Assembly: GCA_049301455.1 (NCBI GenBank)
Contig: JBAQKY010000020.1
Span: forward strand, 10,184 to 74,183
From: Microgenomates group bacterium
Lineage (GTDB): Bacteria > Patescibacteriota > Microgenomatia > UBA8517
DNA length: 64,000 bases
Reading direction: 5' to 3'
Shown here: positions 51,740-54,639 of the stretch, piece after piece
Layout of the letters: every line of letters starts with the position of its first letter
Position numbering within the stretch: the stretch's first letter is position 1
The notes under the pieces: model-generated
Told to the model about the DNA's origin: nothing
Databases searched by the model: none
The model's input: only the letters and a program-made list of their open reading frames with translations
Position numbers and translations under genes: made by a program

Positions 51740-52015
51740 TTAAGGTCTGTAAATTATAAACTTTGTAATATCTACATTTGTAATGGTTGATATTATTTTT
51801 AAGATTAGAAATGCTCCAGCTAAGACGACAATCCCTGTTATTGCATAAGTTAACGTCTTTTGTGCACCCTCAGTTGCTTTGGGATCACCTCCTGATGTTA
51901 GATATTTAAAACCTCCAGACAAGAACATTATAAATAAAGCAATTCCTCCCATCGCAAGTGCTGCAGAAATTAAATTTTCAAACACTTTCTCTAAAGAAGT
52001 TAGCGGTGGTGGCAT
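51740..52015 (-). CDS. VirB2/TrbC-like two-TM pilin candidate (paralog 8 of 8)
   Basis: 91 aa: helix1, then YLTSGGDPKATEGAQKTLTYAITGIVVLAGAFLIL, then helix2. Shares the SGGD...A(K/Q)xx(I/L)TxAxIG motif with the seven genes upstream. Confidence 0.5.
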   Translation of the reverse strand: MPPPLTSLEKVFENLISAALAMGGIALFIMFLSGGFKYLTSGGDPKATEGAQKTLTYAITGIVVLAGAFLILKIISTITNVDITKFIIYRP

Positions 52016-52064
52016 ATTATGAATAATTTTAAACTAAGAGTGACTATTGAGCAATAGGACGTAA

Positions 52065-52412
52065 TTATCTAGCTGTTGGAAGAGTAAGCTCTAAGATGTT
52101 AACTCCGAAGAATGTGTTGATGAGTTGTAATATTGCCCATGCTGAGAAAACAATAACTAAACCGACCAATGCTGCTGTAATTTGATTTCTTGCACCTTCA
52201 GTGTGTGCTTTGTCTCCACCAGAAAGAATCCATTTAACTCCTCCAATGACTAAAATGAAAAAGAAAGCAAGACCTGCAACAACCAAAATTAATTTGATAA
52301 AGCCAGAAACCATGCCTTCAACTGAAAGGGTTGTTGCTGGTTGGAATTGTTCACCTACATTATTAAGCTTAATTTGAGCTAACATCGCTGAATCTGCAAT
52401 TAAATTTTTCAT
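52065..52412 (-). CDS. VirB2/TrbC-like two-TM pilin candidate (paralog 7)
   Basis: 115 aa, ILSGGDKAHTEGARNQITAALVGLVIVFSAWAIL. Confidence 0.5.
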   Translation of the reverse strand: MKNLIADSAMLAQIKLNNVGEQFQPATTLSVEGMVSGFIKLILVVAGLAFFFILVIGGVKWILSGGDKAHTEGARNQITAALVGLVIVFSAWAILQLINTFFGVNILELTLPTAR

Positions 52413-52424
52413 ATAATAAATCTA

Positions 52425-52775
52425 TTATGGTATGAATAGAGGACCTATGTCAATACTTAAAATGTCTATCTTGAAGAATGACTCAATTAGTCCTATTAGG
52501 GCAAACGATGCGATTAATAAAACAAACCCAATAACCGCGCTCGTCAGTCTATTTTTTGCAGCTTCAAGTGATCCTTTGTCTCCACCAGAAAGAATCCAAG
52601 AAACAGCACCCCATATTAATTGAAAAAAGAAAAATAATGCCCCCGCGACAAATAATAATCCTACACCATTAGGAATAAATTTTTCTAAGAATCTATCTGC
52701 GTTTCCGGACTCATATCCTTTAAGACTTGAGCCTACGACTGGGTTTGTGAAATTTTGTGCTAATTGATACTTCAT
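52425..52775 (-). CDS. VirB2/TrbC-like two-TM pilin candidate (paralog 6)
   Basis: 116 aa, ILSGGDKGSLEAAKNRLTSAVIGFVLLIASFALIGL. Confidence 0.5.
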   Translation of the reverse strand: MKYQLAQNFTNPVVGSSLKGYESGNADRFLEKFIPNGVGLLFVAGALFFFFQLIWGAVSWILSGGDKGSLEAAKNRLTSAVIGFVLLIASFALIGLIESFFKIDILSIDIGPLFIP

Positions 52776-53153
52776 TTATTTAATAATTAATTGTGTGAAC
52801 ATGCTTCCAAAGTTTAAAATATTTGGAATTCCAATCAAGCTTCCAACCAATCTAACAATAAGCAATCCCAAAACAGAAACTGTAATTCCAATAATACCCG
52901 ATGTAATTTTTTTCTTGGCAGCTTCAAGTGATCCCTTGTCGCCCCCTGAAGTAACAATTCCAATCGCACCTGTCATGAATATAAACACAAACCAAATTAT
53001 TCCAATTACAGTTATTAGACCAATGGCTGATGAGATAAATTGTGCAAAGATAGTAGAACCGTCTGCGGCTGCTCCCTTGCCCTGCTCTAAGCCTAATCGA
53101 CCAAAACCTTCATAGGTTTTGTCAAATAAGTCTATTTGTTGTGCGAGTTTCAT
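52776..53153 (-). CDS. VirB2/TrbC-like two-TM pilin candidate (paralog 5)
   Basis: 125 aa, VTSGGDKGSLEAAKKKITSGIIGITVSVLGLLIV. Confidence 0.5.
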   Translation of the reverse strand: MKLAQQIDLFDKTYEGFGRLGLEQGKGAAADGSTIFAQFISSAIGLITVIGIIWFVFIFMTGAIGIVTSGGDKGSLEAAKKKITSGIIGITVSVLGLLIVRLVGSLIGIPNILNFGSMFTQLIIK

Positions 53154-53506
53154 TATGGTGTAGGTATAGATGGTTCAAGCAAAAACAGTGGATTGTTAAA
53201 TAAAAGTTGCCCAAATATTGCCGCCAAAACAAAACTTCCGGCAGTGAAGGCTAGACCTATTAGTGTTTGTGTGATTTGAGACCATGCCCCTGCAACCTTT
53301 TTTGCATCATCCCCAGCAGACATAAACGAATAACCTGCCAAAACAAGATTAAATAAGGCATATATTCCTGCTCCAACTACCATTGCTCTTAGTCCAAATT
53401 GAATAAGTTTTCCAAATGCAGGACCGGGATCAGATCCGTAAGCAGACAAACTTCCAGGTACGCTGACTGCTCCAAAAGGGTTTGCTTGTGCAATTATTTT
53501 ATTCAT
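53153..53506 (-). CDS. VirB2/TrbC-like two-TM pilin candidate (paralog 4)
   Basis: 117 aa, MSAGDDAKKVAGAWSQITQTLIGLAFTAGSFVLAA. Confidence 0.45.
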   Translation of the reverse strand: MNKIIAQANPFGAVSVPGSLSAYGSDPGPAFGKLIQFGLRAMVVGAGIYALFNLVLAGYSFMSAGDDAKKVAGAWSQITQTLIGLAFTAGSFVLAAIFGQLLFNNPLFLLEPSIPTP

Positions 53507-53515
53507 GATTTATTT

Positions 53516-53833
53516 TTATATTAAACTAAGTCCTGTAATTGTTTCAATCAATTTTACTATCCAATAGGCAGTAAATACAACCACAAAGCCAATTAAGGCA
53601 GAAGTTACAGCCTGTTTCCCTTTTTGAACTGATTGTGGGTCACTTTTTCCTGCTCCCGAAATGATTGAAATGCCACCTCCAATTAATAAAAATAATAAAA
53701 TTATTCCTGATACCGATATTGCTCCGGCAATAATCGCGGAGACATACAAGCTAATTCCCCCAACATCACTTAGGTTTGCGTTTGAGCTACCTAGAAAAAC
53801 ACTTTGGATGTCTACATCTGCGATTTTATTCAT
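53516..53833 (-). CDS. VirB2/TrbC-like two-TM pilin candidate (paralog 3)
   Basis: 105 aa, IISGAGKSDPQSVQKGKQAVTSALIGFVVVFTAYWIV. Confidence 0.45.
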   Translation of the reverse strand: MNKIADVDIQSVFLGSSNANLSDVGGISLYVSAIIAGAISVSGIILLFLLIGGGISIISGAGKSDPQSVQKGKQAVTSALIGFVVVFTAYWIVKLIETITGLSLI

Positions 53834-53851
53834 TATTTTTTTGAGAAAATA

Positions 53852-54163
53852 TTATTGTATAACAACTACATCAATTCCAATAAATTTCCAAATAAGTTGA
53901 ACTATCCAAAACGATGAGAAAAGTATCAGAATTCCTATTAACGAAGTGGTTATTTTACTTTTTGCCATTTGTATTGCTTTTGGATCGCCAACTGATGTCA
54001 TCATTTTAAAACCAGCAGATATTAAATTAAAAAGCAAAACTATTCCTGAAATACCAAACACGAAAGGTAAGACCGTGTTGTATATTCCCGGCCAAGTAAA
54101 TATACCACCTAGGTTTAATCCTGCTCCAGCCTGTATGCTGTTTAAATCAGATCGTGTAAACAT
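53852..54163 (-). CDS. VirB2/TrbC-like two-TM pilin candidate (paralog 2)
   Basis: 103 aa, MMTSVGDPKAIQMAKSKITTSLIGILILFSSFWIV. Confidence 0.45.
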   Translation of the reverse strand: MFTRSDLNSIQAGAGLNLGGIFTWPGIYNTVLPFVFGISGIVLLFNLISAGFKMMTSVGDPKAIQMAKSKITTSLIGILILFSSFWIVQLIWKFIGIDVVVIQ

Positions 54164-54165
54164 AT

Positions 54166-54639
54166 TTAAAGTAAATCTAGTCCAAGTATATCAAAACCTA
54201 TGAAATTTAGAATAAACACACTAAATATCAACATTATTATTCCTGAAATGGCTGATGTTAATACTTCTTGTCCTGCCTTCAGTCTTGGCGGGTCACCTTG
54301 AGAGGTCATTATCATAAATGAAGCGTAAATTATTAGTAAAAATGCTATTCCACCACCAACACCAATTGACCAACCCAAAATCCAAGAGACAAATGAATTT
54401 GTGTCACCAATCGGAATACATCCTATTGCCGTGTTGATTCCATTACCACCATTGCAAGTTATGTTCGGGTTTGGTTGAGTACCAAGATAATTGTTGCATT
54501 CGTTTTGGTTTGCGCAACACATTGAACCACAACTTATTCCGTTGCAAGGGACACTATGTATACAAGCAGCAGAGACTGGTTTTAGCGAAGTTAGTATAAT
54601 TGATAAAAAAAGAAATAGACTTAAAATTATTTTTCGCAT
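54166..54639 (-). CDS. VirB2/TrbC-like pilin candidate with extra N-terminal Cys-rich extracellular segment (paralog 1, first in array)
   Basis: Start moved to the internal Met (MRKIILSLFLFLSIILTSLKPVSA signal peptide). A segment with about 10 Cys (CIHSVPCNGISCGSMCCANQNECNN...) precedes the conserved two-helix module IMTSQGDPPRLKAGQEVLTSAISGIIML. Confidence 0.45.
   Translation of the reverse strand: MRKIILSLFLFLSIILTSLKPVSAACIHSVPCNGISCGSMCCANQNECNNYLGTQPNPNITCNGGNGINTAIGCIPIGDTNSFVSWILGWSIGVGGGIAFLLIIYASFMIMTSQGDPPRLKAGQEVLTSAISGIIMLIFSVFILNFIGFDILGLDLL

Follow-up and report, generated by a model that had tools for sequence, protein, structure and literature searches.

Why should a single type IV secretion system (T4SS) locus encode eight different pilin-like proteins? 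The question is raised by a 64,000-nucleotide stretch of DNA from a Microgenomates group bacterium, a member of the ultra-small Patescibacteria (assembly GCA_049301455.1, contig JBAQKY010000020.1, positions 10,184 to 74,183; in the following, the window), in which eight small genes follow each other on the minus strand between positions 51740 and 54639. The genes are called W1 to W8 in the direction of transcription (an upstream ATG of W1 lies at 54669), and the proteins occupying the same positions in related arrays are called types 1 to 8. An array of this size is unusual in comparison with classical T4SS loci, as was pointed out in a preliminary description of this DNA made from the letters alone. 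The comparisons reported here point to seven subunits, types 2-8, that appear constant and non-redundant, and to variation that, judged from the sequences, is confined to the Cys-rich ectodomain of type 1. Co-assembly of all eight pilins on the T4SS in a fixed composition is the reading that we consider somewhat probable.

That the eight small genes are real genes of the pilin family was confirmed. Inspection of the open reading frames (ORFs), MAFFT alignment and hydropathy analysis bore out the preliminary description of eight consecutive small genes on one strand, all encoding two hydrophobic helices, a charged loop and a shared core. The core consensus is TSGGDPxxxExAKxxITSALIGIV, of which D, T and G are invariant in the eight paralogs. 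A third, N-terminal and signal-peptide-like hydrophobic segment is present only in W1; none was seen in W2-W8, which begin with 10-40 hydrophilic residues. The AF2 model of W1 (pLDDT 77.7) has hairpin helices at residues 80-112 and 117-152, and the two-helix topology therefore stands for all eight proteins by hydropathy and for W1 also by the model. W1 is identical to an NCBI 'hypothetical protein' from a metagenome-assembled genome of the Microgenomates group, and W7 has more than 1100 homologs, the best 120 of which are 63-97% identical to it. The G+C content of the window is 30-38%.

The intergenic gaps from W1 to W8 are 2, 18, 9, -1, 0, 12 and 49 nt, a spacing that fits a single operon in which the eight pilin genes are transcribed together. 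A sequence scan found no terminator-like site within the array, and 26 promoter-like sites were counted against 22.5 expected from shuffled sequence, which is not an enrichment. As the site numbers were no higher than in shuffled sequence, these scans are uninformative about internal promoters.

All eight proteins matched the Pfam family PF18895 (T4SS_pilin, gathering cut-off 26.6 bits) with E values from 4e-9 to 5.5e-3. Five of them scored above the cut-off (W8 36.9, W7 34.5, W6 30.7, W2 30.7 and W3 28.9 bits) and three below it (W5 21.8, W1 18.3 and W4 17.2 bits, E 2e-4 to 5.5e-3); the latter were assigned to the family because they align with the remaining paralogs, and many orthologs of W1 are annotated with PF18895. 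Because all eight match this family and the same eight-gene array recurs in other genomes (see below), the array is not a product of chance; chance ORFs were ruled out by the family matches, the conservation and dN/dS values well below 1. With these matches, and with the position of the genes inside a T4SS cluster, their earlier identification as paralogs of a T4SS pilin family holds. Membership in the canonical TrbC/VirB2 family, which had also been proposed, found no support: none of the eight matched PF04956 at E<=1 in Pfam, and profile searches of PDB sequences, run with an alignment of the eight paralogs and with one of 28 sequences, returned no solved pilin. Fold searches were non-specific and gave no specific link to solved pilins. 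The sequence tests for homology of the array proteins to canonical VirB2, with PF04956 and with solved pilins, thus failed. Five of the eight paralogs also matched NF045849, the 'pilin-like conjugal transfer protein' (Mbov_0395 family) of Mycoplasma integrative and conjugative elements (ICEs), with E values from 9e-8 to 9e-4, all below the curated cut-off of 40 bits (the best score was 31.6 bits, E 9.4e-8, for W2), and W8 had a weak match, also below cut-off, to the C-terminal end of NF045848 (MMCAP2_0566 family). By these scores the pilins appear to be related to the NF045849 family without being members of it.

Tandem pilin genes of this kind have been described in Patescibacteria. Quinonero-Coronel et al. 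2025 (PMC12102498), who applied PF18895 and PF04956 to 3,035 genomes of Patescibacteria, found 441 VirB2 arrays with 2-11 pilin genes each and an average identity of 25%, and named Microgenomatia as a class rich in pilin arrays. It was suggested there that multiple pilins give versatility towards different host strains. In Southlakia epibionticum ML1, the one case in which such a requirement is known, six pilins were essential for epibiotic growth in a transposon sequencing (Tn-seq) experiment (Wang et al. 2023, PMC10633639), and the essentiality of the pilin genes in S. epibionticum is repeated in a review (PMC12857230); the function of the Patescibacteria T4SS with its pilin array is described as completely unknown (PMC10633639; PMC12857230). 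We regard it as nearly certain that the window carries a Patescibacteria T4SS pilin array. Like the published arrays it consists of tandem PF18895 genes of low mutual identity (19-29% to W1 in global alignments; 20-44%, with a mean of 33%, between paralog pairs in local alignments; about 25% in the published arrays). It is likewise linked to a monoderm VirB4, to TrsD and to PrgI/VirB3, and lies near dnaA. It is another example of these arrays, and nothing essential differs. The papers cited do not mention an invariant order of eight genes whose orthologs correspond one to one, nor that each paralog is under purifying selection, that variability and duplication are limited to the Cys-rich, signal-peptide-bearing type 1, or that multi-module fusions occur; the cysteine pattern is likewise not mentioned in PMC12102498.

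Relatives were scanned with one genome per species, which yielded 80 loci from Woesebacteria and other Microgenomates. With a profile made from W1-W8, exactly eight tandem pilin ORFs of the same size pattern were found in 51 loci, counting the window. When the members of these arrays were compared with W1-W8 by BLAST, the protein at position i had Wi as its best match in 49 or 50 of the 50 arrays, and at position 6 in 45 of them; a positional ortholog was present in 49 of 50 arrays for each of W2, W3, W4, W5 and W8, and in 45 of 50 for W6. Mean ortholog identity was 45-62% depending on the position (60% for W4), as against the paralog mean given above. The order 1-2-3-4-5-6-7-8 was also obtained for 50 loci, the window included, by typing with position-specific profile hidden Markov models (HMMs). 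As the positional groups had themselves served to build these HMMs, the independent evidence for the eight-member arrays is the BLAST test.

Array sizes of 2, 8, 9 or 10 were met among the relatives. Most deviations were due to truncation at contig ends, to extra type 1 genes (1-1-2-...-8 and 1-1-1-2-...-8) or to a separate clade that has types 1 and 2 only (L056, L063, L065, L072, L078 and L079; for example L079, positions 10004-10614); the others were just two loci, L060 and L075, in which a further member resembles type 7. Copy-number change is thus almost entirely a matter of type 1, the exceptions being these two loci. Variation in copy number, which the preliminary description proposed to look for in related strains, was seen as extra type 1 copies, a second type 7 in two loci and the types-1-2-only clade, and not in the set of eight, which is fixed in the 50 loci. 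Much the same applies to the N-terminal segments, which had been described as highly diverged. They do differ between paralogs, but in W2-W8 they are conserved between orthologs, and alignments of the positional groups revealed type-specific motifs such as NPFG in type 4 and GFGPLGLE in type 5.

The closest relative found (L081) has the same synteny and about 80% nucleotide identity to the window. W2-W7 are 92-98% identical to their L081 counterparts at the protein level (98% for W7) and W8 is 84% identical, so that conservation of the pilins equals or exceeds that of neighbouring proteins such as the SpoIID-domain protein (91%) and the VirB6-like protein (55%). The eight proteins could be aligned as had been proposed, and dN/dS against L081 ranged from 0.011 to 0.256: 0.014 for the core of W1, 0.059 for W2, 0.060 for W3, 0.090 for W4, 0.045 for W5, 0.037 for W6, 0.011 for W7 and 0.256 for W8. 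In 76 more distant genome pairs the median dN/dS was 0.16-0.34 and the maximum 0.65, dS being near saturation in most of these pairs. These ratios indicate that all eight pilin genes are under purifying selection.

W1 is built differently. Its signal peptide (residues 1-24) is followed by a Cys-rich ectodomain and then by the two-helix pilin module. The preliminary description had noted about 10 cysteines before the pilin module; the Cys-rich segment is there, with 8 cysteines, all located in residues 26-74 between the signal peptide and helix 1. It includes a conserved C-x11-C loop, which is CNGGNGINTAIGC in W1 and CNGGNGI[DN]TAIGC across the type 1 orthologs. The insert between the signal peptide and this loop varies from 14 to 405 residues and contains 2-36 cysteines. 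Among the eight types only type 1 has a signal peptide, and the mean number of cysteines in types 2-8 is below 0.5. In 60 of 60 scorable orthologs, representing 15 different counts, the number of cysteines in the type 1 region is even, a pattern characteristic of an extracytoplasmic domain with all its cysteines in disulfide bonds. The ectodomains of ten long type 1 proteins contained no Pfam domain; only the C-terminal pilin module was recognized.

Few parts of the array are as well conserved as the hairpin core of type 1. Between W1 and its L081 ortholog the core is 97% identical, whereas the N-terminal part is about 40% identical and has a different number of cysteines; L085, which is more distant than L081, retains the cysteine pattern of W1. 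Where one genome has several type 1 genes, their cores are 48-93% identical, the ectodomains 30-47% over the aligned parts, and the ectodomains differ in length. In the types-1-2-only clade some type 1 proteins lack a signal peptide (MAxxxFC...GINTAIGCIP) yet keep the cysteine pair. The type 1 ectodomain is probably the surface-exposed part that contacts the host.

The signal peptide and the disulfide-rich ectodomain place the N-terminus of type 1 outside, and hence the loop between the helices in the cytoplasm. This loop has 14-15 residues with 2.1-3.8 K/R in all eight positional groups, while the N-terminal tails of types 2-8 (16-38 residues, mostly net acidic) contain 0.7-2.2 K/R; the K/R density of the loop is 3-4 times that of the tails in all eight types. 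Such a distribution fits the positive-inside rule and a predicted N-out, loop-in, C-out orientation. VirB2 and TraA have the same orientation in the membrane.

Pilin modules were also found joined in one polypeptide. An exhaustive profile search of 1.84 billion cluster representatives returned 80,902 family members at E<=1e-3, of which 15,799 reached E<=1e-10, and 148 of the best 149 cluster representatives (at least 148 clusters at 50% identity) had 2-16 or more pilin modules per polypeptide. P0361 consists of a signal peptide, the cysteine pair and then six hairpins, P0378 has eight hairpins, P0382 has 16-17 hairpins in 1775 aa, and P0364 and P0366 are further multi-module fused metagenomic proteins. 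Fusions in the order of the array (1-2-2, 5-6 and 6-7) were observed. An artefact of assembly or gene calling was considered; a seven-module protein of 606 aa is encoded by an ORF that is continuous on four contigs from more than one sample and lies within an array of single-module pilins (L086, positions 9005-14262). Some of the two-module fusions could be explained by the loss of a single stop codon between adjacent in-frame genes. Since fused modules are made together and stay together, they support co-assembly and speak against alternative use.

The array is part of a chromosomal, origin-proximal T4SS cluster, the components of which are listed in Table 1 with the other features of the window.

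Table 1. Positions of the pilin genes, the T4SS cluster and other features in the window
Feature	Position	Strand	Remarks
W1, pilin type 1	54166-54639	-	157 aa if started at MRKIIL, 167 aa if started at the upstream ATG (54669)
W2, pilin type 2	53852-54163	-	103 aa, no signal peptide
W3, pilin type 3	53516-53833	-	105 aa
W4, pilin type 4	53153-53506	-	117 aa; N-terminal tail with the conserved NPFG motif
W5, pilin type 5	52776-53153	-	125 aa; start codon shares 1 nt with the W4 stop codon
W6, pilin type 6	52425-52775	-	116 aa; 0 nt from W5
W7, pilin type 7	52065-52412	-	115 aa; most conserved of the eight
W8, pilin type 8	51740-52015	-	91 aa; shortest N-terminal tail
VirB6-like polytopic membrane protein	50119-51660	-	513 aa; signal peptide and extracytoplasmic domain; VirB6/DotA-like fold
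PEMT/ICMT-family membrane methyltransferase	49518-50111	-	PF04191, E 1.8e-14; same position in L081
ORF splitting the minus-strand T4SS cluster	47312-49501	+	729 aa; opposite strand
PrgI/VirB3-like protein	46161-47210	-	C-terminal CarboxypepD_reg-like domain; PF12666 (PrgI) 26.5 bits, E 9.7e-6, just under the cut-off of 27
TrsD-like protein	45267-46133	-	resembles the N-terminal part of VirB4; NF041427 (TrsD) E 6e-5 and NF045975 E 2.7e-6, both under cut-off
VirB4-type ATPase, monoderm (CD1110) family	43398-45254	-	NF045971 367 bits (cut-off 325); PF19044 (TraG P-loop) E 1.2e-33
Two uncharacterised genes	40083-43394	-	904 aa and 194 aa; end of the cluster, beside dnaN/dnaA; assigned to the system by position only
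dnaN	38876-40000
dnaA	37341-38711		followed by rnpA and yidC; dnaN and dnaA lie 3-6 kb from the cluster
Four-gene block divergent from the array	54678-58685	+	SpoIID-domain protein, 223-aa bPH-domain membrane protein, 70-aa protein with two transmembrane segments, 462-aa protein
SpoIID-domain protein	54678-56381	+	PF08486, E 2.4e-19; divergent from the array; start inferred from the 567-aa L081 ortholog
70-aa protein with two transmembrane segments	57062-57274	+	L081 counterpart is DUF5657
Secreted Cys-rich protein	58706-61372	-	888 aa; signal peptide, 26 Cys
tmRNA (tag AKLKNYASMFNYAFAPQPAFV) beside smpB	61436-61819; 61829-62365	-
DsbB-like protein	62860-63384	-	CKYC motif; PF02600, E 1.4e-11
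Membrane-anchored thioredoxin/DsbA-like protein	63393-63773	-	WCPHC motif; PF00085, E 6e-6
tRNA-Cys	13191-13263
tRNA-Ser	63806-63888

The VirB6-like protein is probably the assembly platform of the system. In the relatives, orthologs of the PrgI-like protein adjoin TrsD and VirB4. The VirB4 and TrsD-like proteins of the window also match the Mycoplasma ICE ATPase model NF045975 (Mbov_0397 ATPase) below threshold. Among 40 window ORFs scanned with Pfam, which are only part of the ORFs and among which three cluster proteins (904, 729 and 194 aa) are unannotated, no relaxase or coupling protein was found. The system is best explained as the chromosomal, probably non-conjugative T4SS of the essential type that is typical of Patescibacteria and is related to monoderm conjugation machines. 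The PEMT/ICMT methyltransferase embedded in the cluster might, speculatively, modify a lipid or the C-terminus of a protein. Neither the 904-aa nor the 194-aa protein had a Pfam match above threshold or an NCBIfam, PADLOC or PDB sequence match; the 194-aa protein had a sub-threshold match to DUF4860 only. Searches of PADLOC, NCBIfam, Pfam and PDB sequences were equally uninformative for the 729-, 888- and 904-aa proteins. At the site of the 729-aa ORF L081 has a different gene, of 531 aa, which marks the site as a variable insertion point inside the cluster. The remaining window is occupied by housekeeping genes.

On the other side of the array lies the divergent four-gene block, which in about 70 of 80 relatives has stayed close to the pilin genes, at a distance of 10 kb at most; its 462-aa protein had no Pfam or PADLOC match. 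In 71 of 80 relatives a SpoIID gene lies no more than 10 kb from the array. It is immediately upstream and divergent in 14 listed loci with eight to ten members, and a few kb away in the types-1-2-only clade. The SpoIID protein is a candidate wall-remodelling partner with a VirB1-like role and could supply the missing wall-lytic function. Orthologs of the 888-aa protein were detected in 46 relatives and have an even number of cysteines in 35 of 40 cases. In all 14 listed loci that have the gene it sits between the array and the VirB6-like gene (for example L010, positions 12937-15411), the usual order in the relatives being p462(-), p223(-), SpoIID(-), array(+), p888(+), VirB6-like(+) and further on PrgI, TrsD and VirB4; in the window and in L081 it is displaced to the far side of the SpoIID block.

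A DsbA/DsbB-like pair had been placed 9 kb downstream of the array. The two genes are real and lie 8-9 kb away, but, the array being on the minus strand, on its upstream side, and the pair was absent from the 10-kb array flanks in all 80 relatives. This absence rules out the pair as a module linked to the array; the pair indicates a general capacity of the cell for oxidative folding.

How could eight such proteins be used? In the mechanism that we propose, eight VirB2-like hairpins of the membrane, none of them redundant, whose tails would face outwards and whose loops would face the cytoplasm, would be made from one operon and would assemble together on the adjoining VirB6-like protein, driven by the TrsD/VirB4 ATPase. 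The product would be one envelope-spanning filament or stalk of fixed composition, in which types 2-8 would be constant structural parts, and type 1 would display its fast-evolving, disulfide-bonded ectodomain outside for contact with the host cell. Several points weigh against this proposal. Filaments are not known from any system of this kind, and pili are as a rule missing from monoderm T4SSs (PMC12102498). Co-assembly is put forward from sequence comparison, and export of the N-terminal tails is assumed for the seven pilins of the eight that have no signal peptide. The typing HMMs are derived from the groups that they type, which leaves the BLAST comparison as the independent test, and the dN/dS values of the distant genome pairs suffer from the saturation mentioned above. 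Long covalent chains of hairpins, finally, fit a membrane-resident bundle as well as a filament, and the product might be a long pilus, a short stalk that spans the wall, or such a bundle. A more daring version, which we put forward tentatively and consider rather doubtful, is a filament or stalk of eight fixed, different subunits that would be closer to an axial structure of several proteins than to a homopolymeric conjugative pilus, would be capped or decorated by an exchangeable, disulfide-knotted type 1 adhesin-pilin choosing the host cell, and would be hard-wired elsewhere by fusion of 2-16 or more hairpins.

Three other explanations have to be compared with co-assembly in a fixed composition. 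The eight paralogs might be alternative pilins that are swapped or differentially expressed for antigenic, phase or host-range variation, in the manner of Bartonella TrwL and Anaplasma VirB2 and as suggested for Patescibacteria (PMC12102498). This would account for the low identity within the array and for the variation of array size between Patescibacteria lineages (2, 8, 9 and 10 here, 2-11 published; PMC12102498), and one variable component, the type 1 ectodomain, does exist. It is difficult, however, to reconcile alternative use with fixed order and one-to-one orthology in 50 genomes counting the window, with purifying selection on every paralog and tails conserved within each type, with copy-number change almost wholly in type 1, with single-operon spacing and a number of promoter-like sites close to that of shuffled sequence, and with fused multi-module proteins that force co-expression. 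We therefore regard exchange of the eight paralogs as very improbable. Of the two possibilities offered in the preliminary description, antigenic, host-range or phase variation is contradicted by the order, the orthology, the dN/dS values of 0.01-0.26 and the conserved tail motifs, and it is heteropolymeric or minor-pilin assembly that the evidence favours. A variant of the latter is a shaft made of one major pilin, with the seven others, present in small amounts, as minor pilins of a priming or tip complex, like those in pseudopili of type II secretion systems (T2SSs), type IV pili and Com pili. Ordered, conserved sets of minor pilins are the norm in type IV pili, T2SS and Com systems, type 1 is set apart by its signal peptide, ectodomain and duplications, and the types-1-2-only clade shows that a minimum of two components is viable. 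Yet the eight modules are alike in size and conservation so that no major subunit stands out, and equimolar many-module fusions make it unlikely that one subunit is in great surplus, at any rate for the lineages that have them. Such a division into major and minor pilins, which is a sub-variant of co-assembly and not its true opposite, seems to us possible but doubtful.

The remaining explanation disputes the filament itself. The eight proteins would be small membrane subunits that surround the VirB6/VirB3/VirB4 translocon as a hetero-oligomeric bundle of helices or a collar of the channel and never become an extracellular pilus, 'pilin' being just the name of the family. The absence of pili from monoderm T4SSs (PMC12102498) agrees with this, as do the lack of a specific fold or sequence link to solved pilins and the resemblance of chains of 6-16 or more fused hairpins to polytopic membrane proteins; moreover, the model NF045849, which five of the paralogs resemble, comes from Mycoplasma, which has no cell wall to span. 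On the other hand, the disulfide-rich ectodomains of type 1, which reach about 400 aa, indicate a surface-exposed function, the consistent link to the secreted 888-aa Cys-rich protein and to the SpoIID wall enzyme suggests a wall-crossing structure, and the homologs in Saccharibacteria were called pilins by structure-based annotation (PMC10633639). A purely membrane-resident role is in our view unlikely.

The array can be placed among known systems accordingly. With canonical VirB2/TrbC/TraA (PF04956; F, pED208 and T pili) the window proteins have in common a two-helix hairpin of roughly 70-100 residues with a short charged loop, the predicted orientation, and genes beside homologs of VirB6, VirB3 and VirB4. 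They differ in having no PF04956 match and no sequence match to solved pilins, in that seven of eight have no long cleavable leader, and in that there are eight distinct subunits instead of one, in a monoderm host. In Bartonella Trw and in Anaplasma phagocytophilum several tandem VirB2-type genes likewise occur in one T4SS locus; the Bartonella Trw/TrwL and Anaplasma VirB2 arrays have been summarised as recent, lineage-specific amplifications for surface variation (PMC12102498), whereas the paralogs of the window are old, keep their order, have one-to-one orthologs and evolve under purifying selection, and do not qualify as a variable array. The host-versatility suggestion made for Patescibacteria in the same paper does not fit types 2-8 of the window. 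Type IV pili, T2SS pseudopili and Com pili resemble the array in having an ordered operon of divergent filament paralogs with non-redundant roles, but this is an analogy in logic only, fold and machinery being unrelated: in type IV pilins there is just one N-terminal helix, the leader is cleaved by PilD, and assembly is carried out by PilB/PilC. The Mycoplasma ICEs come close in another respect, as the pilins, VirB4 and the TrsD-like protein match the neighbouring ICE models NF045849, NF045848 and NF045975, all below the cut-offs, although these ICEs are mobile conjugative elements and the system in the window is chromosomal and has no relaxase among the ORFs scanned. This sub-threshold likeness hints that pilin-like subunits are native to the monoderm T4SS lineage instead of having been acquired from diderms, which would be at odds with the statement that VirB2 homologs are missing from MPF-FATA systems.

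The window offers a candidate for VirB6, which has been reported to be scarce in Microgenomatia, and, with SpoIID and the secreted 888-aa Cys-rich protein, candidate partners for crossing the wall. The pilin array is essential in the only genetically tractable Patescibacterium, and the published explanation of its multiplicity is surface or host versatility. The comparative data point elsewhere, to seven constant subunits and to variability that lies wholly in the ectodomain of the one subunit bearing a signal peptide, and the natural fusions show that the modules work side by side. In this way the question 'why so many pilins?' is turned into specific, testable predictions.

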